IMG/VR virus record: IMGVR_UViG_2718217885_000004
Location: 1 to 36,487 of that record
Direction: 5' to 3' (one strand)
Source of the DNA: a virus
Lineage: Duplodnaviria > Heunggongvirae > Uroviricota > Caudoviricetes
Length of the DNA: 36,487 nucleotides
The notes beneath the pieces are model-generated. The model made no database searches. It was not told the origin of the DNA and saw nothing but the letters and a program-made list of their open reading frames with translations. Each line of letters opens with the position of its first letter. Positions within the stretch are counted from its first letter, which is position 1. Of the stretch, positions 5,208 to 29,441 are shown in pieces. The position numbers were made by a program, and so were the translations under genes.

Positions 5208-5479
5208 GTATTCGTATTGAAATTGGCGAACGTTATGTCGTTACCAGTGACAGCTTTCAGTTTATTCTCCACGAGAAAAAGAGAGCGGAAAGCGGTAAAA
5301 ACGCCGGTCAGGAATGGCTGGCGGTGGTTGGTTATTACCCGAAATTAAGCCAGCTCGTTTCCGGCCTGATGCATCACGATATTCTGACCGGAAGCGCAAA
5401 GTCTTTTGCTGATTTAAACGCGCAGGTTGAGCAACTCAGCAGGCGTTGTTCAGAGGCTTTTGGCTCATATGGCCGTTAA
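5204..5479 (+). CDS. Small early protein, 91 aa (P2 orf83-like)
   Basis: ATG at 5204 with ggagaa RBS. Overlaps the A start. Confidence 0.5.
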   Translation: MSIRIEIGERYVVTSDSFQFILHEKKRAESGKNAGQEWLAVVGYYPKLSQLVSGLMHHDILTGSAKSFADLNAQVEQLSRRCSEAFGSYGR

Positions 5480-7742
5480 AGCCTCCGGGCGTTTTGTCCC
5501 TCCGTCAGCATTTGCCGCAGGCACCGGTAAGACGTTTGCCGGTGCTTATGCATGGAACGCGCCACGCGAGGCTGTCGGGCGCGAAAGACCCCTTACACGT
5601 GATGAGATGCGTCAGGTGCAAGGTGTTTTATCCACGATTAACCGCCTGCCTTACTTTTTGCGCTCGCTGTTTACTTCACGCTATGACTACATCCGGCGCA
5701 ATAAAAGCCCGGTGCACGGGTTTTATTTCCTCACATCCACTTTTCAGCGTCGTTTATGGCCGCGCATTGAGCGTGTGAATCAGCGCCATGAAATGAACAC
5801 CGACGCGTCGTTGCTGTTTCTGGCAGAGCGCGACCAGTATGCGCGTCTGCCGGGGATGAATGACAAGGAGCTGAAAAAGTTTGCCGCCCGTATCTCATCG
5901 CAGCTTTTCATGATGTATGAGGAACTCTGCGATGCCTGGGTGGATGCGCATGGCGAAAAAGAATCGCTGTTTACGGATGAGGCGCAGGATCATCTGTATG
6001 GTCATGTTGCTGGCGCTGCACGTGCTTTCAATATTTCCCCGCTCTACTGGAAAAAATACCGTAAAGGACAGATAACCACGAGGCAGGCATATTCTGCCAT
6101 TGCCCGTCTGTTTAACGATGAGTGGTGGACTCATCAGCTTAAAGGCCAGCGTATGCGCTGGCATGAGGCGTTACTGATTGCTGTCGGGGAGGTGAATAAA
6201 GACCGTTCTCCTTATGCCAGTAAACATGCCATTCGTGATGTACGTGCACGCCGCCAGGCAAATCTGGAATTTCTTAAATCGTGTGACCTTGAAAACAGGG
6301 AAACCGGCGAGCGCATCGACCTTATCAGTAAGGTGATGGGCAGTATTTCTAATCCTGAAATTCGCCGGATGGAGCTGATGAACACCATTGCCGGTATTGA
6401 GCGTTACGCCGCCGCAGAGGGTGATGTGGGGATGTTTATCACGCTGACCGCGCCGTCAAAGTATCACCCGACACGTCAGGTCGGAAAAGGCGAAAGTAAA
6501 ACCGTTCAGCTTAATCACGGCTGGAACGATGAGGCATTTAATCCAAAGGATGCGCAGCGTTATCTCTGCCGTATCTGGAGCCTGATGCGGACGGCATTCA
6601 AGGATAATGATTTACAGGTCTACGGTTTGCGTGTCGTTGAGCCACACCACGACGGAACGCCGCACTGGCATATGATGCTTTTTTGTAATCCACGCCAGCG
6701 TAACCAGATTATCGAAATCATGCGTCGCTATGCGCTCAAAGAGGATGGTGACGAAAGAGGCGCTGCGCGAAACCGTTTTCAGGCAAAACACCTTAACCGG
6801 GGCGGTGCTGCGGGATATATCGCGAAATACATCTCAAAAAACATCGACGGCTATGCACTGGATGGTCAGCTCGATAACGATACTGGCAGGCCGCTGAAAG
6901 ATACTGCCGCGGCTGTTACCGCATGGGCGTCAACGTGGCGCATTCCGCAATTTAAAACGGTTGGCCTGCCGACAATGGGGGCTTACCGTGAACTACGCAA
7001 ATTGCCTCGCGGCGTCAGCATTGCTGATGAGTTTGACGAACGCGTCGAGGCTGCACGCGCCGCCGCAGACAGTGGTGATTTTGCGTTGTATATCAGCGCG
7101 CAGGGTGGGGCAAATGTCCCGCGCGATTGTCAGACTGTCAGGGTCGCCCGTAGCCCGTCGGATGACGTTAACGAGTATGAGGAAGAAGTCGAGAGAGTGG
7201 TCGGCATTTACGCGCCGCATCTCGGCGCGCGTCATATTCATATCACCAGAACGACGGACTGGCGCATTGTGCCGAAAGTTCCGGTCGTTGAGCCTTTGAC
7301 TTTAAAAAGCGGCATCGCCGCGCCTCGGAGTCCTGTCAATAACTGTGGAAAGCTCACCGGTGGTGATACTTCGTTACCGGCTCCCACGCCTTCTGAGCAC
7401 GCCGCAGCAGTGCTTAATCTGGTTGATGACGGTGTTATCGAATGGAATGACCCGGAGGTCGTGAGGGCGCTCAGAAGCGCATTAAAACACGGCCTGAGAA
7501 GACCAAACCGTCAGCAAAGAAACGGAAGCCCGTTAAAACCGCATGAAATAGCGCCATCGGCCAGACTTACCCGGTCGGAACGAATGCAAATTACCCGTAT
7601 CCGCGTTGACCTTGCTCAGAACGGTATCAGGCCGCAGCGATGGGAGCTTGAGGCGCTGGCGCGTGGGGCAACCGTAAATTATGACGGGAAAAAATTCACG
7701 TATCCGATTGCTGAAGAGTGGTCGGGATTTTCCTCAAACTAA
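5469..7742 (+). CDS. A: Rolling-circle replication initiator, P2 gpA-like (HUH endonuclease)
   Basis: HUH motif in GTPHWHMMLF and tyrosine motif YIAKYISK. Likely ATG at 5469 (MAVKASG); the track ORF starts at an upstream TTG at 5427. Confidence 0.85.
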   Translation: MAVKASGRFVPPSAFAAGTGKTFAGAYAWNAPREAVGRERPLTRDEMRQVQGVLSTINRLPYFLRSLFTSRYDYIRRNKSPVHGFYFLTSTFQRRLWPRIERVNQRHEMNTDASLLFLAERDQYARLPGMNDKELKKFAARISSQLFMMYEELCDAWVDAHGEKESLFTDEAQDHLYGHVAGAARAFNISPLYWKKYRKGQITTRQAYSAIARLFNDEWWTHQLKGQRMRWHEALLIAVGEVNKDRSPYASKHAIRDVRARRQANLEFLKSCDLENRETGERIDLISKVMGSISNPEIRRMELMNTIAGIERYAAAEGDVGMFITLTAPSKYHPTRQVGKGESKTVQLNHGWNDEAFNPKDAQRYLCRIWSLMRTAFKDNDLQVYGLRVVEPHHDGTPHWHMMLFCNPRQRNQIIEIMRRYALKEDGDERGAARNRFQAKHLNRGGAAGYIAKYISKNIDGYALDGQLDNDTGRPLKDTAAAVTAWASTWRIPQFKTVGLPTMGAYRELRKLPRGVSIADEFDERVEAARAAADSGDFALYISAQGGANVPRDCQTVRVARSPSDDVNEYEEEVERVVGIYAPHLGARHIHITRTTDWRIVPKVPVVEPLTLKSGIAAPRSPVNNCGKLTGGDTSLPAPTPSEHAAAVLNLVDDGVIEWNDPEVVRALRSALKHGLRRPNRQQRNGSPLKPHEIAPSARLTRSERMQITRIRVDLAQNGIRPQRWELEALARGATVNYDGKKFTYPIAEEWSGFSSN

Positions 7743-7914: not shown

Positions 7915-7947
7915 GGGCAAGAGGGGGTTCTTGCCCTTTGTTTATTT
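7915..7947. terminator. Candidate bidirectional intrinsic terminator between convergent A operon and SIR2 cargo gene
   Basis: Hairpin gggcaaga / tcttgccc with loop ggggt, followed by tttgtttattt on plus and an A/T-rich run on minus. Confidence 0.5.
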
Positions 7948-10540
7948 AAGCGGCGATTTCAATGTTGCTTTTATATTTTAAGAGGGCGTTTTTGGGAACT
8001 GCTGGCCAGGCTGAGTATCTATAATAGTTCATATAATCTTTCTCTATCAGTGTTTTTAGCTGTTTGTTAGCTTGAACTTCATCACCAAGTAAAAAGAATG
8101 CACACATGGCCGTAGCCCCTTTTGAATTGTTATGTGCTAAAACTGAATTTATCTCATTCTTTTTAATGTCTTGCCCTTCTTTTTTCTTGGCAACTTCTCT
8201 ATTGATTATTAAAACATCTTTTTCCCTGTAATCTTTAATTTTTTCAAGGTTTTCATTAGCGATTTTAATTGTTTCTTTATAGTTTCCTGCAAGAAGATTG
8301 GTATAAGATTTTCCTAAGATATAATCACTAAACCCGTAACCTTTTTCATAAGCTTCATCAAGAAGAACTATCGCTTTATCATAATCGCCGTTTAAAGATG
8401 CAATATCAGATTTTAATTTTAAAATGGTGATTTCTGATTTGTTTCTTGGCAGGCTATCAATAAACTCCTCTGCCAATTTGATGTTGTTTTTATCAATTAG
8501 TAATATGTCTACAATACTGTTTGTATGATTATTTTTCCACGGGCAGTTCATGGCTTCTTTGACTAATTCAATACCAGCTTTGATGTCCCTGTTGCAGCCT
8601 ATCTCATATCGAGCTTTAAATATAATGAAAGGAGCAATTCTTGCAATGTCGCTCTCTTCTTCATATTTATCAATAAAGCCTTTCATCAGGTTGGGAGTGT
8701 TTTCATCGAAGTCTGTTTCAAATAAAGATAGATGCAGTTGTGTTAAATATTTTAATATGTTTCTTTTTTTATTTTTTGATGATGTTTTGTAAGCGTTGGA
8801 TAATGTATCTATGCATAATAATGTATCTTCTTTCTTTTGCAATGCGCAGGTGAAATCAGTATATAACGACAAATATGTATCGTGAGTAGGGTTGACCTCT
8901 TTTATTTTGTCAAGAAGTTCTTGTATTAATTTATTACAATCTTTCTTATCATGGCTTGATTGATGTTTTGTCTTTATTGCGTCATATTTTATTCTCCATG
9001 CAATATTATCCAGATCACTGCTTTGGAGTAAGCTTTTATCAATTAAATCATGTATTTCATCAAAGGTTATTAATTCTTCATCATTATTTTCTAGATGTAG
9101 AATAGCAATTCTGCTTAAATGATTCTTAAGATTTATGCTATATGGGAATTTTTCAAGCAATCCCTTAAGGTAATGTATTTTTGCCTTTAGATCTGTGAAT
9201 ATGTTTGCCCTTGAAAGGGCGTAATTTATATTAAATTCATCAAGAGCTATAAGATTATCACTAATTTCTAATGCTGACTTTGTGTCTTTTTGTTCTTCTT
9301 TTATTTCAATTAGCCTACGCAGATATTTAGACTTTATATTGTCACTATCAGCGTTATTGATTAATTCATTCAGTTTTGACTCTGCGTTTAAATAATTTTT
9401 ATTTCTAATGAGGTTGTCAATGTATAACAAATTCTTAAAATCTTCTTCGGGGATCTTTTGATCGTCTAAATCACTTTGGGATAGCTCGTTTATTAATGAC
9501 GATATGTCATGTGTTAGAGTGTGTTTTTTTAATTTTGAGAGATCAGATTTGATAATGCCATTTTTAGATAAGTTGTACTCATCTGTTATAAAGTTTTGGA
9601 TCATCATCTCTCTTTTTGTGGATTTTTGATTCCCTCCAAAAGAGAGTGCGCAGCCTAATTCTAGGGCTAGTTCTGCCATCAATTCATCAAAACCTTCTAT
9701 TTCTACCCAATAAACTTTATCTTGACCTAGAAGCCTAATAAGTTCTGGTGGGATGGAGTCATTTTTTCTAACGCACCAGTATACTCCATTTCTTAGGTAA
9801 TCGTCCTGTTTTAATAAATGTTTTAAAACATCCATGATAGAGCTGTCATTGCCAGCATAACCAACAAAAATAATCCCGTATTCTTTAGTGAATTCAGTTA
9901 GTTTTTCACGAGTGTTACCTTCTAATGACTCGGTTTCTTTTAAAGAGCTTTTTATGCTATCAAATAAATAATCACCATGTAATTTTATTATTTTTGGCCT
10001 TGAAGAAGTAATTGAGACGCCTTTAATTGATGAATCATGTGCACATAATAATGGTCTGTCAGAAGAAAATTGATAAAATGCTTCATTTATTAAATCGTCA
10101 AAATTTGTTGTGAAGACAGTATCAAAAAACTTTGATTCAAATAGTTCAACGAGATAAGCATATCCAATTGAAGGTAATTTTTTGTCTACTTGAAGCTCAA
10201 CAAATCTTCTGCGTTGAGATGGAAGATCAAATTTCTTTTCAAAAAGAGATGAGTATTCATTGTTTGGGTCGTACCAGACTGGATGGTTTTTGGATAGCCA
10301 TTTTTTAGCTTCTTCGGCATCGACATATTCTTGATTGGATAGTCTTGTGTATATCTCTTCTCTCCATTTCGCTACTAACTCTTGACCAGTTTTTATTCCA
10401 GATGTAACGGATGCGCCAGCACCAAGAAAAAGTGAATAGTTAGGTGATGTACCTGATTTGATTTTTATATAATCAGCTAAATCTTTAATGGTTCTTTTTT
10501 TGGCAACCAGTTGTTCCTTGGTAGTATCACGATCAGACAT
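7946..10540 (-). CDS. SIR2-like (sirtuin-fold NADase) domain protein with long helical C-terminal region, 864 aa; candidate defense-associated sirtuin
   Basis: N-terminal roughly 300 aa carry four SIR2-like hallmarks in order: LFLGAGAS, TTNFDDL, KIIKLHGD, FVGYAGNDSS. C-terminal roughly 550 aa are K/N/D/L-rich with no Walker motif. GGAGGG RBS upstream of ATG at 10538-10540. Very AT-rich. Occupies the A-to-cos variable locus. Confidence 0.8.
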   Translation of the reverse strand: MSDRDTTKEQLVAKKRTIKDLADYIKIKSGTSPNYSLFLGAGASVTSGIKTGQELVAKWREEIYTRLSNQEYVDAEEAKKWLSKNHPVWYDPNNEYSSLFEKKFDLPSQRRRFVELQVDKKLPSIGYAYLVELFESKFFDTVFTTNFDDLINEAFYQFSSDRPLLCAHDSSIKGVSITSSRPKIIKLHGDYLFDSIKSSLKETESLEGNTREKLTEFTKEYGIIFVGYAGNDSSIMDVLKHLLKQDDYLRNGVYWCVRKNDSIPPELIRLLGQDKVYWVEIEGFDELMAELALELGCALSFGGNQKSTKREMMIQNFITDEYNLSKNGIIKSDLSKLKKHTLTHDISSLINELSQSDLDDQKIPEEDFKNLLYIDNLIRNKNYLNAESKLNELINNADSDNIKSKYLRRLIEIKEEQKDTKSALEISDNLIALDEFNINYALSRANIFTDLKAKIHYLKGLLEKFPYSINLKNHLSRIAILHLENNDEELITFDEIHDLIDKSLLQSSDLDNIAWRIKYDAIKTKHQSSHDKKDCNKLIQELLDKIKEVNPTHDTYLSLYTDFTCALQKKEDTLLCIDTLSNAYKTSSKNKKRNILKYLTQLHLSLFETDFDENTPNLMKGFIDKYEEESDIARIAPFIIFKARYEIGCNRDIKAGIELVKEAMNCPWKNNHTNSIVDILLIDKNNIKLAEEFIDSLPRNKSEITILKLKSDIASLNGDYDKAIVLLDEAYEKGYGFSDYILGKSYTNLLAGNYKETIKIANENLEKIKDYREKDVLIINREVAKKKEGQDIKKNEINSVLAHNNSKGATAMCAFFLLGDEVQANKQLKTLIEKDYMNYYRYSAWPAVPKNALLKYKSNIEIAA

Positions 10541-11038: not shown

Positions 11039-12073
11039 TCAGCCGTTGTCAGTGTCCAGTGAGTAGTTTTTAAAGCGGATGACCTCCTGACCGAGCCAGC
11101 CGTTTATCTCGCGGATCCTGTCCTGTAACGGGATAAGCTCATTGCGGACAAAGACCTTTGCCACTTTCTCAATATCACCCAGCGACCCGACGTTCTCCGG
11201 CTTGCCGCCCATCAACTGAAAGGGGATGCGGTGCGCGTCCAGCAGGTCAGCGGCGCTGGCTTTTTTGATATTAAAAAAATCGTCCTTCGTTGCCACTTCA
11301 CTGAGCGGGATAATTTTAATGCCGTCGGCTTTCCCCTGCGGGGCATAGAGAAACAGATTTTTAAAGTTGTTGCGGCCTTTCGACTTCACCATGTTTTCGC
11401 GAAGCATTTCGATATCGTTGCGATCCTGCACGGCATCAGTGACGTACATGATGTATCCGGCATGTGCGCCGTTTTCGTAATACTTGCGGCGAAACAGCGT
11501 GGCCGACTCATTCAGCCAGGCAGAATTAAGGGCGCTGAGATATTCCGGCAGGCCGTACAGCTCCTGATTAATATCCGGCTCCAGCAGGTGAAACACGGAG
11601 CCGGGCGTGAAGGCTGTCGGCTCGTTGAAGGACGGCACCCACCAGTAAACATCCTCTTCCACACCACGGCGGGTATATTTTGCCGGTGAGGTTTCCAGTC
11701 TGATGACCTTACCGGTGGTGCTGTATCGCTTTTCCAGAAACGCATTACCGAACACCAGAAAATCCAGCACAAAGCGGCTGAAATCCTGTTGCGAAAGCCA
11801 CGGGTGCGGGATAAACGTTGAAGCCAGAATATTGCGTTTGACGTAAATCGGTGAGCTGTGATGCACGGCAGCACGCAGGCTTTTTGCCAGACCGGTAAAG
11901 CTGACCGGTGGCTCATACCATCTGCCGTTACTGATACACTCGACGTAATCCAGAATGTCACGGCGGTCGAGTACCGGCACCGGCTCACCAAAGGTGAATG
12001 CCTCCATTTTCGGGGCGCTGGCGGTCATTGTTTTTGCCGCAGGTTGCGGTGTTTTCCCTTTTTTCTTGCTCAT
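11039..12073 (-). CDS. Q: Portal protein, P2 gpQ-like, 344 aa
   Basis: Position next to cos, length equal to P2 Q, start overlaps the P stop (ATGA). Confidence 0.85.
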   Translation of the reverse strand: MSKKKGKTPQPAAKTMTASAPKMEAFTFGEPVPVLDRRDILDYVECISNGRWYEPPVSFTGLAKSLRAAVHHSSPIYVKRNILASTFIPHPWLSQQDFSRFVLDFLVFGNAFLEKRYSTTGKVIRLETSPAKYTRRGVEEDVYWWVPSFNEPTAFTPGSVFHLLEPDINQELYGLPEYLSALNSAWLNESATLFRRKYYENGAHAGYIMYVTDAVQDRNDIEMLRENMVKSKGRNNFKNLFLYAPQGKADGIKIIPLSEVATKDDFFNIKKASAADLLDAHRIPFQLMGGKPENVGSLGDIEKVAKVFVRNELIPLQDRIREINGWLGQEVIRFKNYSLDTDNG

Positions 12074-13845
12074 CAGTAAAACTCCAGAATGGTGGATGTC
12101 AGCGGGGTGCTGATACCGGCGGTGAGTGGCTCATTTAACAGGGCGTGCATGGTCGCCCAGGCGAGGTCGGCGTGGCTGGCTTCCTCGCTGCGGCTGGCCT
12201 CATAGGTGGCGCTGCGTCCGCTGCTGGTCATGGTCTTGCGGATAGCCATAAACGAGCTGGTGATGTCGGTGGCGCTGACGTCGTATTCCAGACAGCCACG
12301 GCGGATAACGTCTTTTGCCTTGAGCACCATTGCGGTTTTCATTTCCGGCGTGTAGCGGATATCACGCGCGGCGGGATAGAACGAGCGCACGAGCTGGAAC
12401 ACGCCGACACCGAGGCCGGTGGCATCAATTCCGATGTATTCGACGTTGTATTTTCCGGTGAGTTTGCGGATGGATTCAGCCTGGGTGGCAAAGTCCATGC
12501 CTTTCCACTGGTGACGCTCAAGTATTCTGAATTTGCCACCGGCCACCACCGGCGGTGCCAGTACCACGCATCCGGCGCTGTCGCCACGGTGTGACGGGTC
12601 GTAACCAATCCATACCGGGCGGGAGCCGAACGGATTCGCGGCAAACGGCGCATAGTCTTCCCATTCTTCCAGCGTGTCGACCATGCAGCGTTGCAGCTCC
12701 TCGAACGGGAACACCGACGCCTTGTCGTCAACAAATTCACACATGAACAGGTTTTTAAAATCGTCGGCGCTGTTTTCACGTTTGAGCTGCTCAATGTCGA
12801 ACAGTGTGCAGCCACCTTTCAGGGCATCTTCAATGGTGACAATCTGCCGCCACTGACCGTCCGCACAGAGAAGACCTCCGGCAAGGGCGTTATGACTGAC
12901 GTCGATTTCCACGCGTTCGGCGGCGCTGGCGCGTCCCCGGTTGAACAGTTCACCTGACCAGAACGGGTAGGCGTCGTGCGCCAGCGTGGACGGGGTGGAG
13001 AAATAGGTCGAGCGCAGGTGACTCTGTGAGGCCATACCTGATGCCACCTTACGCAGTACCTGAAAATTCGGGATCCAGAAAATCTCGTCGACGTACAGGT
13101 CGCCGTTATGGCTCTGCGCGGTGTTGGAGTTGGTGCCGAGAAAAATCAGTTTTGCGCCGTTATTGCCCAGGACAATCGGGTCACCGGTCAGGTCAACATC
13201 AACCAGACGGGCAAAGGCGATGATGTATTCACGGAACACATACGCCTGCGTTTTACTGGCCGACAGAAAAATCTGGTTATGACCGGTTTTCAGGGCGCGC
13301 AGCAGCGCCTCGCGGGAAAAATAAAACGTCGCGCCAATCTGGCGGGATTTCAGGATATCGCGGATGCGGTGCTCAAGCCCGGCGCGATACCAGTGCAACT
13401 GATAGTCGAAAGACTGCTCAAAGAAAATCTGCTCCAGCTTTTCGATGGCCTCGTCACTGAAAAAATTCTTTTTCGGTTTGCGACGCCCGCCTTTGTTGCG
13501 GTTAGCGACGTTCGGATTAAGGTCTGCCTCGTTGCCGGTCTGACTGTAGCGGTTTACCCGTGCCAGTCGTTCAATCTGGCGTCCCAGCAGGTCAATTTCC
13601 TTGAAGTCACCGCCGGTTTTCTGCGGTTTGATGATGAGCTGGGTCAGTCGCGCTTCCAGACTCATTTCGACACGGCTGATGGGGGCAACGCTGTCCCAGC
13701 CGTCGCGCTGTTTCCAGCTCTGCACCGTCGGACGTTTCATCTGCAACATGGCGGCAATCTGCGGCACGGAAAACCCCTGCCAGTACAGCAGCGCCGCCTG
13801 ACGACGCGGGTCGTGTAAAAGAGTGGTGTCTGTGGTGATGGTCAT
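12073..13845 (-). CDS. P: Terminase large (ATPase) subunit, P2 gpP-like, 590 aa
   Basis: Likely start at the ATG giving MTITTDTTLL (590 aa, as in P2 P). The track ORF extends 10 codons further upstream. Confidence 0.85.
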   Translation of the reverse strand: MTITTDTTLLHDPRRQAALLYWQGFSVPQIAAMLQMKRPTVQSWKQRDGWDSVAPISRVEMSLEARLTQLIIKPQKTGGDFKEIDLLGRQIERLARVNRYSQTGNEADLNPNVANRNKGGRRKPKKNFFSDEAIEKLEQIFFEQSFDYQLHWYRAGLEHRIRDILKSRQIGATFYFSREALLRALKTGHNQIFLSASKTQAYVFREYIIAFARLVDVDLTGDPIVLGNNGAKLIFLGTNSNTAQSHNGDLYVDEIFWIPNFQVLRKVASGMASQSHLRSTYFSTPSTLAHDAYPFWSGELFNRGRASAAERVEIDVSHNALAGGLLCADGQWRQIVTIEDALKGGCTLFDIEQLKRENSADDFKNLFMCEFVDDKASVFPFEELQRCMVDTLEEWEDYAPFAANPFGSRPVWIGYDPSHRGDSAGCVVLAPPVVAGGKFRILERHQWKGMDFATQAESIRKLTGKYNVEYIGIDATGLGVGVFQLVRSFYPAARDIRYTPEMKTAMVLKAKDVIRRGCLEYDVSATDITSSFMAIRKTMTSSGRSATYEASRSEEASHADLAWATMHALLNEPLTAGISTPLTSTILEFY

Positions 13846-13914
13846 GAATACCTCGCCGTGATGAATACACGGCAAGGCTACTGAGTCGCGCCCCGCGATT
13901 CGCTAAGGTGCTGT

Positions 13915-20316: not shown

Positions 20317-21561
20317 CTAAATCCAGCGGAGGTAGAATAGTAAGTAAGGATCTCTGATGTCTAATACATCGCTTTCTTGATCCCACTCGATAATACTGCT
20401 ATTTGCAGCATCGTTGGCAATAGCAGTTGAGTGCTGACATGCACTGGTTATACTAGAACCGCTTGGGCTATCGCCATGACATAACGAGGTCACTCGAGAT
20501 ACTAAGTCAGAATAACGAAATGTCAGCGTCGGAGGATTAGAAGCAATGGCTTTTAATAAAAAGACATAAACATCGCCTTGCCAGCCATCTTTTGATATAT
20601 ATGATTTTCTATCAGAACCACGCACTTTAGGTCCTTCGCGCATTTTATCCACAATCGTGCTGTAATCTGCTGACTGAAGTGTACGTTTGCACACTCTTTG
20701 CAATGTGGCAATATCTTTTTGATATTTTATTGAAGTATCAGAAGTCTCTCTGACATTCATTTCAAAACAAGAGTTTAAGCATAAATATTGCATTAGTTGT
20801 GGTGAGCCTGCGGACTCTTTTACTAACTCACTTATAACTTCATCAGAGGCATCTATATTGAGTAGTTTGAATCCTTTCTGGGCAATAATTTTTAAGGTTG
20901 ATTCATCCCAATAATCAAAATCAATATTAAATATCCGACCTCGTAAGTCAGAGTTACCCCGAAGAACATCATCAGAATGATATGGCACTGATGCACAAAT
21001 AAATTTGCAGCCATTAGCTATGGCATCTTTTATTTGTCGTGATAGTTCGGCTTGAGCTTCTTTAGCAATATAGTGAAAATCATCGATAAAGATAACATAA
21101 TCTGTGTTTGCGATTTCTCGCTTCATTAGTTGAAAGAGATCTATCGCAAATGATTCTGAGGTTTGATCTGCTGTACTATAACCAGCGGATGCAGACCCTT
21201 TAAGACTACCTTTTGCTAAAATTACACCAGCTTGGGCAGATAATTCTCCTGTACCTGAAAATGATGAGGTGCCAGTTTTACTTTGAACTTGGGTTACTGG
21301 TACACCAAGTATGTCGAAAACGCGCTTCCATAAATCATTAGCAGATTGAACCCCTGCTCCAGTTACTTCGATTAGCCTCTGGGTTCCAAGTACTTTCTTA
21401 ACAAAGACAGTTTTTCCTGATTTTGATGGGCCAGAGATAGAAATCAGCATGGTGCCCATCTCAAGTGTATCGATTAACTGTTGCTGTTTGGATACTAGGT
21501 GATCCTCAACCAGTGTGTGGTTGGGATAACCGCCTGGGATAAAAACCTCTGTCGCCTTCAT
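20317..21561 (-). CDS. P-loop NTPase of uncertain family, 414 aa; cargo gene between S and V
   Basis: Walker A GPSKSGKT and Walker B-like YVIFIDDFHY. Antisense to the late operon. Lower GC than neighbours. No adjacent partner ORF. Confidence 0.7.
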   Translation of the reverse strand: MKATEVFIPGGYPNHTLVEDHLVSKQQQLIDTLEMGTMLISISGPSKSGKTVFVKKVLGTQRLIEVTGAGVQSANDLWKRVFDILGVPVTQVQSKTGTSSFSGTGELSAQAGVILAKGSLKGSASAGYSTADQTSESFAIDLFQLMKREIANTDYVIFIDDFHYIAKEAQAELSRQIKDAIANGCKFICASVPYHSDDVLRGNSDLRGRIFNIDFDYWDESTLKIIAQKGFKLLNIDASDEVISELVKESAGSPQLMQYLCLNSCFEMNVRETSDTSIKYQKDIATLQRVCKRTLQSADYSTIVDKMREGPKVRGSDRKSYISKDGWQGDVYVFLLKAIASNPPTLTFRYSDLVSRVTSLCHGDSPSGSSITSACQHSTAIANDAANSSIIEWDQESDVLDIRDPYLLFYLRWI

Positions 21562-24093: not shown

Positions 24094-26388
24094 ATGAGCA
24101 CAAAATTCAGAACCGTTATCACCACTGCCGGTGCAGCAAAGCTGGCAGCGGCAACCGCACCGGGAGGGCGGAAGGTCAACATTACCACGATGGCCGTCGG
24201 GGATGGCGGTGGTAAATTGCCTGTCCCGGATGCCGGACAGACCGGGCTTATCCACGAAGTCTGGCGACATGCGCTGAACAAAATCAGCCAGGACAAACGA
24301 AACAGTAATTATATTATCGCAGAGCTGGTTATTCCGCCGGAGGTGGGCGGTTTCTGGATGCGTGAACTTGGCCTGTACGATGATGCGGGAACGCTAATTG
24401 CCGTGGCGAACATGGCCGAAAGTTATAAGCCAGCCCTTGCCGAAGGCTCAGGGCGTTCGCAGACCTGCCGCATGGTCATCATCGTCAGCAGTGTGGCCTC
24501 AGTGGAGCTGACCATTGACACCACAACGGTGATGGCAACGCAGGATTACGTTGATGACAAAATTGCAGAACATGAACAGTCACGACGTCACCCTGACGCC
24601 TCGCTGACCGCAAAAGGTTTTACTCAGTTAAGCAGTGCGACCAACAGCACGTCTGAAACACTGGCTGCAACGCCGAAAGCGGTAAAGACCGCCTATGACC
24701 TTGCTAACGGGAAATATACCGCGCAGGATGCCACCACCGCGCGAAAAGGCCTTGTTCAGCTCAGTAGTGCGACTAACAGCACGTCTGAAACGCTCGCCGC
24801 AACGCCGAAAGCGGTAAAGGCCGCGTATGACCTTGCTAACGGGAAATATACCGCACAGGACGCCACCACAGCGCGAAAAGGTCTTGTCCAGCTCAGTAGC
24901 GTCACCAACAGCGATTCTGAAACGCTTGCGGCAACACCAAAGGCGGTTAAGACAGCGTATGACCTTGCTAACGGGAAATACACTGCACAGGATGCCACCA
25001 CGGCGCGAAAAGGTCTTGTCCAGCTCAGTAGCGCCACCAACAGTGATTCTGAAACCCTCGCGGCAACGCCAAAAGCAGTGAAGTCTGCCTATGACAATGC
25101 TGAAAAACGTCTTCAGAAAGATCAGAACGGTGCGGATATTCCGGGAAAGGATACCTTCACGAAAAATATCGGTGCCTGTCGTGCTTATAGCGGCGCTTTG
25201 AGCACTGAAGCCGGAAACTGGACAACCGCTCAGTTTATTGAATGGCTGGATTCCCGTGGTGCATTTAATCATCCGTACTGGATGTGCAAAGGCTCCTGGT
25301 CATATGCAAATAACAAAATCATTACGGATACCGGATGTGGTGATATCCACCTGGCTGGTTGTGTCGTCGAGGTCATGGGAACAAAATCTGCAATCACCAT
25401 CCGAGTGACAACGCCGACAACATCAAGTGGTGGCGGTACAACCAGCGCGCAATTCACTTACATTAATCATGGGGACGGCTACTCCCCCGGCTGGCGTCGT
25501 GACTGGAATCGTCAGGGCGACGCAATGACCGGAACGATTAATCAGGACGGCGGAAGCCAGAATACCTATATGTCTACGGCCTTATGTTCAGGCACCAGAG
25601 GCGGCAAAAAATATCTCAGAAAGTTTCGTGGTGGAGAAGGAGACACTATCTGGCATGAAACAGTACAGGGCGGGGTTGTTCGCTGGGCGACTGGTAATAC
25701 TGATGCTCAGGAAGAATTATCACTCAGCTCCGCTTATGGTCTCCGTTCAAGAGGTGAGATTACATCAAGCAGTGCTAATGGTCTGCGCATTGCTTATGGC
25801 AATTATGGATTCTTTATCAGGAATGATGGCAGCAGCACTTATTTTATGTTGACTAAATCAGGTGACAGATTAGGCACTTATAATAATTTAAGACCACTGA
25901 TTATAAATGATGCCACGGGTGCTGTATCAATGGGGCATGGCCTGAGTGTTACTGGTGATATTGTCTCAAGTACCAAAGTACGTGCCGGTAGCGGGAAAAA
26001 ATTCACGGTCAGCAGCAGTAATACATCCACGAAGGAAGCCGCATTCAATTTGTGGGGAAACTCAAGTCGTCCGGTGGTGGCTGAATTAGGTGATGATGCA
26101 GGCTGGCATTTTTACAGTCAGAGAAATACAGATAACAGCATCACTTTTGCTGTTAACGGTCAGGTATCACCATCTAACTATAGTAATTTTGATTCCCGTT
26201 ATGTACGCGATATCCGGCTTGGGACTCGAGTTGTCCAGACCATGCAGAAAGGGGTGATGTATGAGAAAGCAGGGCACGTAATTACCGGGCTTGGTATTGT
26301 CGGTGAAGTCGATGGTGATGATCCCGCAGTATTCAGACCAATACAAAAATACATCAATGGCACATGGTATAACGTCGCACAGGTGTAA
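24094..26388 (+). CDS. H: Tail fiber protein, P2 gpH-like, 764 aa, with internal tandem repeats
   Basis: Conserved N-terminal part follows I; contains four 44-aa repeats. Longer than the 669 aa I recall for P2 H. Confidence 0.85.
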   Translation: MSTKFRTVITTAGAAKLAAATAPGGRKVNITTMAVGDGGGKLPVPDAGQTGLIHEVWRHALNKISQDKRNSNYIIAELVIPPEVGGFWMRELGLYDDAGTLIAVANMAESYKPALAEGSGRSQTCRMVIIVSSVASVELTIDTTTVMATQDYVDDKIAEHEQSRRHPDASLTAKGFTQLSSATNSTSETLAATPKAVKTAYDLANGKYTAQDATTARKGLVQLSSATNSTSETLAATPKAVKAAYDLANGKYTAQDATTARKGLVQLSSVTNSDSETLAATPKAVKTAYDLANGKYTAQDATTARKGLVQLSSATNSDSETLAATPKAVKSAYDNAEKRLQKDQNGADIPGKDTFTKNIGACRAYSGALSTEAGNWTTAQFIEWLDSRGAFNHPYWMCKGSWSYANNKIITDTGCGDIHLAGCVVEVMGTKSAITIRVTTPTTSSGGGTTSAQFTYINHGDGYSPGWRRDWNRQGDAMTGTINQDGGSQNTYMSTALCSGTRGGKKYLRKFRGGEGDTIWHETVQGGVVRWATGNTDAQEELSLSSAYGLRSRGEITSSSANGLRIAYGNYGFFIRNDGSSTYFMLTKSGDRLGTYNNLRPLIINDATGAVSMGHGLSVTGDIVSSTKVRAGSGKKFTVSSSNTSTKEAAFNLWGNSSRPVVAELGDDAGWHFYSQRNTDNSITFAVNGQVSPSNYSNFDSRYVRDIRLGTRVVQTMQKGVMYEKAGHVITGLGIVGEVDGDDPAVFRPIQKYINGTWYNVAQV
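24607..25095 (+). repeat. In-frame tandem repeat inside H: about 3.7 copies of a 132-bp (44-aa) unit
   Basis: Period of 132 bp measured between unit starts at 24607, 24739, 24871 and 25003. Units are near-identical at protein level with synonymous differences. Confidence 0.85.
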
Positions 26389-26391
26389 TTT

Positions 26392-26919
26392 ATGCAGCAT
26401 TTAAAAAATATTACTGCGGGTAATCCAAAAACTGTTGCCCAATATCAACTGACAAAAAATTTTGATGTTATCTGGTTATGGTCCGAAGAGGGAAAAAACT
26501 GGTATGAGGAAGTAAGTAATTTTCAGGAAGACACGATAAAGATTGTTTACGACGAGAATAATATAATTGTCGGCATCACCAGAGATGCTTCAACGCTCAA
26601 CCCTGAAGGTTTTAGCGTTGTCGAGGTTCCTGATATTACCGCCAACCGACGTGCTGATGACTCAGGTAAATGGATGTTTAAGGATGGTGCCGTGATTAAG
26701 AGGATTTATACGGCAGACGAACAGCAACAACAGGCAGAATCACAAAAGGCCGCGTTACTTTCCGAAGCGGAAAGCGTTATTCAGCCACTGGAGCGCGCTG
26801 TCAGGCTGAACATGGCAACAGATGAGGAGCGTAGCCGACTGGAAGCATGGGAACGCTACAGTGTTCTGGTCAGCCGTGTGGATCCTGCAAATCCTGAATG
26901 GCCGGAAATGCCGCAATAA
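26392..26919 (+). CDS. G: Tail fiber assembly chaperone, gpG-like, 175 aa
   Basis: Immediately follows H. AT-rich compared with the backbone. Confidence 0.75.
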
Positions 26920-27070
26920 GTTGTATGAGCTGACATATCTATAGCACAGAGTAAAGCCTAATCTGACAGTCCGCTCTGTGCAAGGAGCGGACATTACCTA
27001 ACACATTGGTAACCTTCACAGATTTACGCGTTCTACATAGTTAGCATTGTATCTGATGAGTTATCATGTT

Positions 27071-27850
27071 TTAAAATATCCAACTGATAAATCCACCTGA
27101 ATACTTTTCACTAATTTTGATTGCATAAAGATCATGAAGAGTTATAAATAAATCATTATCTTCTTTGAAAATTAACTCCTCATATTCTGCCATTATCAAA
27201 TTATGCTGTGTTGTTAGTTTAGATATGTTATCTATTTCACTGGCAAGCATGGATTTGTTTACATTGGTGTGTGGATCCATGGCAATATATTTCCGCATCA
27301 ATGGAATTAGTTGATCAGGGTCTATATTTTTTGCATTTTCCTTTGCTTTTTTTTGTCTTTCTGAATAGATGGAGTTAATTGTGTCAGTGTGTTTTTTCGC
27401 CAGTCTCTTAAACTCTGGATATGAACCAGTAACTAATGCAAGCTCTTCGTACTTAAGGAATAAATCGATATTGCATTTTTTTACCGTCATTTCAAGATCT
27501 TCAACTCTTTTTTTTAACTCTTCATTTGTTTTAATAAGAGACATCGGGAGAACTTCATAATGTTGTCCTAATTCTGAATCAGGGCTCATTGCCATATGTA
27601 CTATTTCATTATACATGAGCTGATAAGAAGCAGATAACTCTCCATACTTTAGAAATAGTTCATTATGTGAAGATGAACAAGAACTTTGTAATTTCATCAT
27701 TGGTCTAAAGTAATCCTTTATAAACTCCTCCTGAAGATCTTGGTCTTTTTTGTAGCTCTCTAGGATTCCAGCAAAAAGAAATGACCCTAAAGATATAGAG
27801 ATTATGGATATTAGCAATTGACTAAGGAATGATTGTGTTTCATTACTCAT
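27071..27850 (-). CDS. Membrane-anchored protein of unknown function, 259 aa; cargo gene between G and FI
   Basis: Single N-terminal transmembrane helix (LLISIISISLGSFLFAGIL) followed by a charged helical domain. Very AT-rich. Antisense to the late operons. Confidence 0.65.
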   Translation of the reverse strand: MSNETQSFLSQLLISIISISLGSFLFAGILESYKKDQDLQEEFIKDYFRPMMKLQSSCSSSHNELFLKYGELSASYQLMYNEIVHMAMSPDSELGQHYEVLPMSLIKTNEELKKRVEDLEMTVKKCNIDLFLKYEELALVTGSYPEFKRLAKKHTDTINSIYSERQKKAKENAKNIDPDQLIPLMRKYIAMDPHTNVNKSMLASEIDNISKLTTQHNLIMAEYEELIFKEDNDLFITLHDLYAIKISEKYSGGFISWIF

Positions 27851-28126
27851 AAAACATCCTTAAAAAATAACACGAAAAGTGACTCCTGACAGGGAAGAAA
27901 CGACAGGTCGGAAACAAACTTAACTGATGAGTTAGCCGTAGTCCAGAACCTTGTTTGAACACTTAGTGTGACTGTTTGCATCTCAGGAATTTGTGCCAAT
28001 AACATTTGAATCCTTATAATTTATTTAAATCAAATTTAGTTACTCGCTCAAAGCAGGCTGTCAGATTTGATAGCATTTGGGCTATGTAAATTGTCAGGCG
28101 GAAAATGAGTGAGTACAAATCAGGAC

Positions 28127-28250: not shown

Positions 28251-29441
28251 ATGAGTGACTATCATCACGGCGTGCAGGTGCTGGAGATTAACGACGGCAC
28301 CCGCGTCATTTCCACCGTATCCACTGCCATTGTCGGCATGGTCTGCACGGCCAGCGATGCGGATGCGGAAACTTTCCCCCTCAATAAACCTGTGTTGATT
28401 ACCAATGTGCAGAGCGCAATTGCAAAGGCCGGTAAAAAAGGCACGCTGGCGGCATCGTTGCAGGCCATCGCCGACCAGTCAAAACCGGTCACCGTTGTCG
28501 TGCGTGTGGAAGACGGCACCGGCGACGACGAGGAAACGAAACTTGCGCAGACCGTTTCCAATATCATCGGCACCACCGACGAAAACGGTCAGTACACCGG
28601 ACTGAAAGCCCTGCTGGCGGCGGAGTCGGTAACCGGTGTTAAACCGCGTATTCTCGGTGTGCCGGGACTGGATACCAAAGAGGTGGCTGTTGCACTGGCA
28701 TCCGTCTGTCAGAAGCTGCGCGCTTTCGGATATATCAGCGCATGGGGCTGTAAGACCATTTCCGAGGTGAAAGCCTACCGCCAGAATTTCAGCCAGCGTG
28801 AGCTGATGGTCATCTGGCCGGATTTCCTCGCATGGGATACGGTCACCAGTACCACCGCCACCGCGTATGCCACCGCCCGTGCGCTGGGTCTGCGCGCTAA
28901 AATCGACCAGGAGCAGGGCTGGCATAAAACGCTGTCCAATGTCGGGGTAAACGGTGTTACCGGCATCAGCGCCTCTGTATTCTGGGATTTGCAGGAGTCC
29001 GGCACCGATGCTGACCTGTTGAACGAGTCAGGTGTCACAACGCTGATTCGCCGTGACGGTTTCCGCTTCTGGGGTAACCGTACCTGCTCTGATGACCCAC
29101 TGTTCCTCTTTGAAAACTACACCCGCACCGCGCAGGTGCTGGCCGACACGATGGCTGAGGCGCACATGTGGGCGGTGGATAAGCCCATCACCGCAACGCT
29201 GATTCGCGACATCGTTGACGGCATCAATGCCAAATTCCGTGAGCTGAAAACAAACGGCTATATCGTGGATGCGACCTGCTGGTTCAGCGAAGAATCCAAC
29301 GATGCGGAAACCCTCAAGGCCGGAAAACTGTATATCGACTATGACTATACCCCGGTGCCTCCTCTCGAAAACCTGACCCTGCGCCAGCGTATTACTGATA
29401 AATATCTGGCAAATCTGGTCACCTCGGTTAACAGCAATTAA
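28251..29441 (+). CDS. FI: Tail sheath protein, P2 gpFI-like, 396 aa
   Basis: Length and position match P2 FI. Confidence 0.88.
   Translation: MSDYHHGVQVLEINDGTRVISTVSTAIVGMVCTASDADAETFPLNKPVLITNVQSAIAKAGKKGTLAASLQAIADQSKPVTVVVRVEDGTGDDEETKLAQTVSNIIGTTDENGQYTGLKALLAAESVTGVKPRILGVPGLDTKEVAVALASVCQKLRAFGYISAWGCKTISEVKAYRQNFSQRELMVIWPDFLAWDTVTSTTATAYATARALGLRAKIDQEQGWHKTLSNVGVNGVTGISASVFWDLQESGTDADLLNESGVTTLIRRDGFRFWGNRTCSDDPLFLFENYTRTAQVLADTMAEAHMWAVDKPITATLIRDIVDGINAKFRELKTNGYIVDATCWFSEESNDAETLKAGKLYIDYDYTPVPPLENLTLRQRITDKYLANLVTSVNSN

Follow-up and report, generated by a model that had tools for sequence, protein, structure and literature searches.

The Fun(Z) protein of phage P2 blocks the growth of phage T5 and confers sensitivity to fluorodeoxyuridine (FUdR), and other phages encode membrane-anchored superinfection-exclusion (Sie) proteins, such as HK97 gp15, T4 Imm and Sp, lactococcal Sie2009 and P22 SieA. 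In P2 (NC_001895) fun(Z) is a lysogenic-conversion gene located between G and FI. The cargo hotspots of P2-like prophages are well known (PMC9122126; PMC13586616; bioRxiv 10.1101/2024.10.15.618418), and the Z/fun locus has been described as one of them (PMC13586616; bioRxiv 10.1101/2024.10.15.618418), the gpA-Q hotspot being the only one tested in the work of Rousset (2022). The Z/fun slot is an established reservoir of anti-phage genes, most of its cargo being unannotated. The subject of this work is the gene that occupies the slot in a P2-like prophage of 36,487 nucleotides (IMG/VR record IMGVR_UViG_2718217885_000004, positions 1 to 36,487; the whole stretch is hereafter called the window). 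This gene is mobile and stands alone, it has no relationship to Fun(Z) or to the defence proteins catalogued so far, and its 259-aa product belongs to a compact, rare family without catalogued relatives. As to its role, slot, neighbours and predicted architecture make an envelope-acting anti-phage factor the best candidate, a reading that is held tentatively, at somewhat under an even chance.

The resemblance to fun(Z) is one of position and composition. A first-pass annotation, made from the letters of the window and its open reading frames (ORFs), had noticed a 259-aa ORF, strongly AT-rich and antisense to the late operons, between tail genes in the Z/fun slot, and all of this was borne out: the ORF is found exactly at 27071-27850 (-), flanked by G (26392-26919) and FI (28251-29441), both on the plus strand, as fun(Z) is in P2. 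The GC content of the coding sequence is 0.317, and stays at 0.30-0.36 over approximately 26950-28100, as against 0.51-0.60 in the flanking late genes. The remaining layout is that of a P2-like prophage, with int (1897-2910), C, A (5427-7742), Q/P (11039-13875) and the capsid, lysis and tail genes, followed by H (24094-26388), G, the cargo gene, FI, FII, E, T, U and D. Moreover, both cargo genes are non-essential, and the same backbone sequences and inverted repeats bound both cassettes. The products, however, differ. Fun(Z) (NP_046777.1) has 528 residues and shows no homology to the present protein, either by BLASTP (best E 0.42 over 14 residues) or by comparison of profile with sequence using hhalign (probability 0.39%). 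The homology that had been left possible is thus ruled out, and there is therefore no basis for expecting a block of T5 in particular; nothing in the protein predicts such a specificity.

The occupant of the slot is rare. G/FI flanks with other cargo were found in 1647 of the 5426 complete E. coli genomes and the present gene in 12 of them, one copy being split by a frameshift. A tblastn search of 50,697 phage records gave a single match, Yersinia phage L-413C, in which the same cassette (99% DNA identity) lies in the same slot and its gene, L-413Cp20, is annotated as hypothetical; the product (NP_839869.1) is 99.6% identical to the present protein, which is itself identical to ANO78562.1 of E. 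coli. The only family match was PHROG 7729, of unknown function (E 1.7e-126), whose model spans aa 79-259 only, so that in some deposited gene calls the start has been placed too far downstream, leaving out both the transmembrane (TM) helix and the first cysteine. Searches of Pfam, NCBIfam and PDB sequences gave nothing significant, the Pfam immunity (Imm) families included, and neither did PADLOC, in keeping with the initial impression that the protein carries no recognisable motif. Furthermore, no likeness of sequence or fold was detected to Pfam, to PHROGs of known function, to BFVD or to PDB entries. ClyA-type alpha pore-forming toxins gave no significant fold match (Foldseek E 0.19, TM-score 0.22), and for a hemerythrin-like metal-binding four-helix bundle neither conserved H/E/D ligands nor a score above cutoff was found. 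Some relatives have been labelled 'putative lysogenic conversion protein' by their depositors, and the accession numbers of the gene were not found in the literature searched. The hotspot is already known, and it was the deposition of the L-413C genome that brought the gene into GenBank; the uncharacterised part is the family itself.

The ORF is a real gene under purifying selection, and more than a chance ORF, since the length of its homologs, the dN/dS ratio and the ribosome-binding block are all conserved. The homologs detected among 5.8 billion proteins fall into 45 clusters, almost without exception of exactly 259 aa and 37-98% identical, and pairwise dN/dS among nine gap-free orthologs was 0.09-0.32. 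An AAGGA ribosome-binding site (RBS) at 27857-27861, 6 nt 5' of the start codon, forms part of a block (GTTATnTTTTAAGGA) conserved in 9 of the 10 homolog loci compared (Table 1); in the Marinomonas copy the block diverges internally (TTTCGTGGA). In an exhaustive profile search of 1.84 billion representatives the family numbered only 91, and all but a few of these are standalone proteins 245-300 aa in length.

With respect to architecture, the single N-terminal TM helix and the charged helical domain described at first pass are both present. The TM segment (aa 12-30) reaches a Kyte-Doolittle 19-mer mean of 2.36, and every 19-mer beyond aa 4-34 stays at or below 1.0; it is unusually well conserved (G22, F26, G28) and is followed by an invariant E31-x-Y-K. 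Outside this segment the protein is charged (29 K+R, 36 D+E) and predicted to be all-helical, and the AlphaFold2 model is an all-helical bundle (pLDDT 82.7, pTM 0.72). The conserved residues other than cysteine (G28, E31, Y33, K34, R49, P50, Y134, E136, T141, G142) are concentrated where the TM helix ends and the bundle begins. An aromatic C-terminal tail has the family consensus I246-S247...G-F-x-S-W-x-F and, from the helix lengths in the model, we infer that it returns to the membrane surface beside the juxtamembrane E-x-Y-K motif.

Among 61 aligned sequences, no two of which share more than 50% identity, conservation is nowhere in the protein higher than at C58 and C126. Both are absent together in five sequences and one alone (C126) is lost in a single sequence, so that the two behave as a unit. 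Their helix register (i + j = 184, as against approximately 188 for an antiparallel hairpin) brings them within one turn. A cytoplasmic metal site made up of C58, H62 and C126 was also considered and ruled out, as the candidate histidine ligands are not conserved (H62 56%, H85 26%). As regards orientation, the mean net charge of the 15 residues flanking the TM helix is +1.2 before it and -0.4 after it, the N flank being the more positive in 46 of 60 members, and several members carry highly charged N-terminal tails of 35-50 aa. Together with the coupled cysteine pair and the caspase fusions described below, this points to an N-in/C-out topology, which would place the bundle in the periplasm and make a disulfide the simplest explanation of the pair. 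The protein is thus most likely a membrane-anchored periplasmic helical protein, its bundle probably stapled by a Cys58-Cys126 disulfide.

Two remote relatives, P0161 and P0176 (512-515 aa; loci L041 6001-7539 and L042 3593-5131), have an N-terminal Peptidase_C14 caspase domain devoid of signal sequence, from which a K-rich linker leads to the TM helix. Over the C-terminal half they show homology to the family, and the two cysteines match in the alignment (hhalign probability 96%, E 4.6e-9). The P0161 gene lies directly after HsdR-HsdS-AAA_13-HsdM, a Type I restriction-modification (RM) operon with an embedded PrrC/RloC-like AAA_13 gene. Such fusions are rare, since a second profile search including the remote members added only one more. 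Their existence suggests that the bundle is able to act as an input domain outside the cytoplasm. The observations on the coupled cysteines, the topology and the caspase fusions are new in this analysis.

The family is spread in a sporadic, patchy manner over marine, plant-associated, gut and metagenome-derived Proteobacteria and one metagenome-assembled genome (MAG) of Nitrospirota. The gene is solitary and mobile: all-against-all BLASTP of the neighbours in 17 loci revealed no conserved partner, and in all 18 hosts checked its GC content is 4-19 points below that of its surroundings. Apart from the P2 hotspot, 7 contexts out of about 17 distinct ones have defence genes within approximately 3 kb, a raw count uncorrected for background. 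The Vibrio sagamiensis copy directly follows a Type I RM operon and has an HNH gene in its vicinity, and the Enterobacter copy directly follows an Mrr_cat gene; the Phytobacter copy is convergent with a full-length PDC-S06 ATPase gene, and that of Thiodiazotropha is 0.6 kb from AbiEi/AbiEii. The Kangiellaceae copy stands between PD-Lambda-1 (E 1e-165) and a DUF4132 protein, beyond which a further gene gives a weak NACHT match below cutoff (23.9 bits, cutoff 26.7), and another Vibrio copy directly follows a PDC-S31/DUF2971 gene. Other copies are found near loci of Rhs or of the type VI secretion system (T6SS): in Pectobacterium within an Rhs-Imm26-DUF4303 orphan array, in P. parmentieri in an integrase island adjoining Hcp-VgrG-Rhs, and, in the case of P0134, beside T6SS core genes. 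Further copies adjoin an IS110 transposase or lie on a Burkholderia conjugative plasmid.

In two Pseudomonas loci (L031 7121-7483 and L033 537-1145) the gene immediately downstream encodes a related protein, with shared EPRLGAVFVAPYS…HDNKYYPMVAL. This could be a lineage-specific partner; no Pfam family matches the protein, and the remaining lineages did not show it.

The anti-phage reading is drawn from the hotspot, from the defence neighbours in unrelated genomes and from the caspase-fused relatives beside Type I RM. According to it, the gene is a functional single-gene cargo ('moron') cassette in the hypervariable Z/fun slot, presumably transcribed from its own promoter in the lysogen, against the direction of the late operons. 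Its product would be a bitopic inner-membrane protein with a short cytoplasmic N-terminus, one TM helix, a stalk and a periplasmic helical bundle of approximately 200 aa held by the Cys58-Cys126 disulfide, the aromatic tail coming back to the membrane surface next to the invariant E-x-Y-K motif. In the preferred version, it would act by superinfection exclusion, blocking entry of the superinfecting phage's genome at the inner membrane; in the alternative one, it would sense a periplasmic stage of infection and respond through the TM helix, in an abortive-infection (Abi)-like manner linked to membrane permeabilisation. Exclusion at genome entry is preferred because the protein has no cytoplasmic domain for sensing or signalling, and the placing of the helical domain in the periplasm favours exclusion or sensing at the envelope over a classical cytoplasmic Abi sensor. 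The suggestion first made for this ORF, a Fun-like or a new membrane-associated Abi or exclusion factor, has therefore lost its first half; the second is still the best reading, by association.

The Sie proteins are among the closest of the described systems. Like them, the present protein is the product of a single phage-borne gene with the expression signals of a moron, it shows no enzymatic motif, and it is a membrane protein with one TM helix whose bulk, on the topology favoured here, would lie outside the cytoplasm. Unlike them, it is common outside prophages and is larger than most, and the comparisons with Pfam, PHROGs of known function, BFVD and PDB revealed no likeness of sequence or fold. 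L-413Cp20 and PHROG 7729 represent the same protein, annotated as hypothetical or unknown and, in the PHROG model, incomplete. The likeness to the periplasmic four-helix-bundle sensor domains of Tar/Tsr and QseE is generic to helical bundles, designed bundles scoring higher, and the present protein differs from these receptors, as well as from caspase-containing conflict proteins, in having neither a cytoplasmic output domain nor a second TM helix.

A broader proposal covers the whole family as an 'outside-in' module of phage sensing or exclusion, in which the TM helix and the periplasmic bundle would detect or obstruct a periplasmic stage of infection (insertion of the tail tip or tape measure, or transit of the genome), standalone members acting at the inner membrane and rare relatives being wired to a cytoplasmic caspase-like protease. 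It is a doubtful proposal. To our knowledge, a periplasmic disulfide-stapled bundle on one TM helix would be unusual among defence proteins, the majority of which detect infection from within the cytoplasm. If protection against phages is true, an envelope-level mechanism would be added to the P2 repertoire, and the caspase-fused relatives would point to immune signalling from periplasm to cytoplasm. Being a single gene, the cargo is cheap to test; for the present, it is a clearly bounded candidate that falls short of a discovery.

Several points weigh against an anti-phage role at the envelope. No experimental phenotype exists for any family member, none of the 5027 defence protein models of PADLOC-DB v2.0.0 matched at E up to 10, and the accession was not matched in the text of the DefensePredictor supplements. 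Guilt by association is qualitative here; the Bordetella, Pseudomonas, Marinomonas and Superficieibacter loci show housekeeping-type neighbours only, and the three contexts adjoining T6SS or Rhs genes are equally compatible with an immunity function. A single TM helix without cytoplasmic domain offers no obvious mechanism of killing or signalling. Moreover, the contact between C58 and C126 is deduced from helix register and co-loss only, and the K+R counts of close E. coli-type members (N flank 0-2, C flank 3-4) weakly favour the opposite topology.

Of the rival explanations, the one that survives best, unlikely as we judge it, is another envelope function acquired by lysogenic conversion, such as stress tolerance, colonisation or serum resistance (compare Bor and Lom of lambda), or the modulation of an inner-membrane or periplasmic machine of the host. 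The depositors' label on relatives is in its favour, several chromosomal copies stand without defence neighbours, and a generic helical-bundle fold leaves function unconstrained; the patchy spread over diverse Proteobacteria and a Nitrospirota MAG nevertheless speaks against a niche-specific virulence role, and so do, for the explanation in general, the recurrence beside RM, Abi and PD systems and the caspase-fused relatives.

Next comes the possibility, likewise unlikely, that the gene is an orphan immunity or protection factor whose bundle binds and neutralises a periplasm-acting interbacterial toxin (T6SS or Rhs effector, or bacteriocin), the host being protected from bacteria and not from phages. 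In none of the 17 loci does a conserved gene for a cognate toxin lie upstream, no Imm family is matched, and most of the informative contexts are anti-phage genes and not toxin loci; fusion to a cytoplasmic caspase domain is, in addition, not a known architecture of immunity proteins. What keeps this explanation in play is that immunity proteins directed at periplasmic effectors are typically membrane-anchored, located in the periplasm and equipped with disulfides, that orphan immunity genes are solitary as this gene is, and that the Pectobacterium, P. parmentieri and P0134 copies lie where they do. Should protection against an interbacterial toxin be true, the P2 hotspot would carry anti-bacterial immunity genes too.

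A classical cytoplasm-facing Abi protein, as the first-pass annotation implied, whose helical domain would recognise a phage protein and whose TM helices would permeabilise the membrane, is improbable. Many defence effectors are TM proteins (PMC9122126), the K+R counts of the close homologs would suit it, and the conserved small TM residues G22, S23, A27 and G28 could mediate oligomerisation. However, three observations put the N-terminus on the cytoplasmic side, namely the family-wide bias in net charge, the long charged tails that precede the TM helix in several members and the caspase domains fused ahead of it, and coupled cysteines that lack conserved metal ligands are in keeping with an oxidising compartment. 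Finally, a function intrinsic to the phage (tail-fibre, lysis or morphogenesis accessory), for which the position among tail genes would speak, or a spurious ORF is very improbable, and effectively refuted by the distribution of the gene: it is missing from more than 99% of P2-like prophages with the same flanks and occurs as lone copies on a conjugative plasmid and in chromosomal islands that are not of phage type. It is also antisense to the late operons and under purifying selection.

Table 1. Coordinates in the window of the cargo gene, of the features predicted in its product and of the cassette that carries it.
Feature	Positions	Strand	Remarks
Coding sequence, 259 aa, ATG start	27071..27850	-	30.1 kDa, pI 5.4; predicted bitopic membrane protein, all-helical bundle
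Single TM helix, codons 12-30, LLISIISISLGSFLFAGIL	27761..27817	-	Predicted; unusually well conserved
Cys58 codon	27677..27679	-	Best-conserved column in the family (92%)
Cys126 codon	27473..27475	-	90% conserved
Aromatic C-terminal tail K-Y-S-G-G-F-I-S-W-I-F, codons 250-259 and stop	27071..27103	-	Conserved; low model confidence
RBS-containing block GTTATTTTTTAAGGAT	27856..27871	-	Kept in 9 of 10 homolog loci aligned, including Vibrio, Teredinibacter and Thiodiazotropha
Upstream part of cassette: presumed own promoter and leader of about 150 nt	27851..28054	-	Promoter position inferred
Mobile cassette, about 1.09 kb	26969..28054		88% match to Enterobacter chromosomal copy
Inverted repeat, left arm, 25 nt, imperfect	26960..26984		80% complementary to right arm
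Inverted repeat, right arm	28043..28067		Coincides with resumption of P2 backbone homology
GC-rich hairpin, 8-bp stem, GTCCGCTC-N8-GAGCGGAC	26969..26992		77 nt past the stop codon

The limits of the mobile unit (Table 1) are given by the Enterobacter chromosomal copy (locus L016 5793-6882), which has no phage genes nearby and matches the window over the cassette length. Homology to the P2 backbone ends at 26996 and resumes at 28043, so that the cassette ends overlap the backbone by 28 nt and 12 nt. The 25-nt inverted repeat belongs to the P2 backbone, and inverted repeats are also annotated in the record of the P2-EC67 Z region (AJ512685). The ends, including the 8-bp hairpin common to P2 and the Enterobacter copy, are retained in that phage-free locus, which suggests that these short shared sequences travel with the cassette or serve as its sites of recombination. 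The hairpin may in addition be a bidirectional terminator, although it has no U-tract.

The 200 nt preceding the start codon are conserved among the Enterobacterales copies; at the DNA level, approximately 170 nt are shared by those of E. coli, Enterobacter, Phytobacter and Citrobacter and by two from Pectobacterium, with AAGGTTCTGGACTATGGCTAACC as the core. Promoter, operator or leader are candidate roles for this stretch. A structured leader RNA or riboswitch was considered for this region and rejected, there being no Rfam match and a consensus fold of -9.9 kcal/mol with almost no covariation. An upstream ORF of 52 aa (27847-28005, minus strand), whose ATGA overlap with the start codon suggested a two-gene operon, was likewise discarded, as it is not conserved: a stop interrupts it in the Enterobacter copy, the ATG is missing in others and the region contains indels. 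A sigma-70-like match, GTGCCA-16-TATAAT (10/12), is found at 27993-28020 on the plus strand, facing FI. In DNA so rich in AT this good match may be fortuitous, and over the whole upstream region of the cassette promoter-like sites are fewer than in shuffled controls.

The same prophage carries cargo in two further places. In the gpA-Q (old/tin) hotspot, an 864-aa protein is encoded at 7946-10540 (-), with a GC content of 0.32; it matches SIR2_2 (E 4e-15) and, strongly, the PADLOC models Aga_SIR2, for the SIR2 part of pAgo-associated proteins (E 2e-59), and PDC-S65, and is probably the product of a SIR2-type defence gene. Between the lysis/S genes and V, at the position of P2 orf30, lies an antisense gene for a 414-aa protein (20317-21561, minus strand; GC 0.40) with a weak AAA_22 match and a match to PADLOC PDC-S59 (E 1.5e-31), consistent with a PDC-S59-like ATPase. 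With SIR2-domain and PDC-S59 cargo in the other two slots, all three cargo slots of the prophage thus carry candidate conflict genes. In the tail-fibre gene H, finally, a 132-nt tandem repeat (24640-25095, plus strand; 3.5 copies, 87% matches) encodes units of approximately 44 aa (…SSATNSTSETLAATPKAVK.AYDLANGKYTAQDATTARKGLVQL…) in the shaft of the tail fibre.
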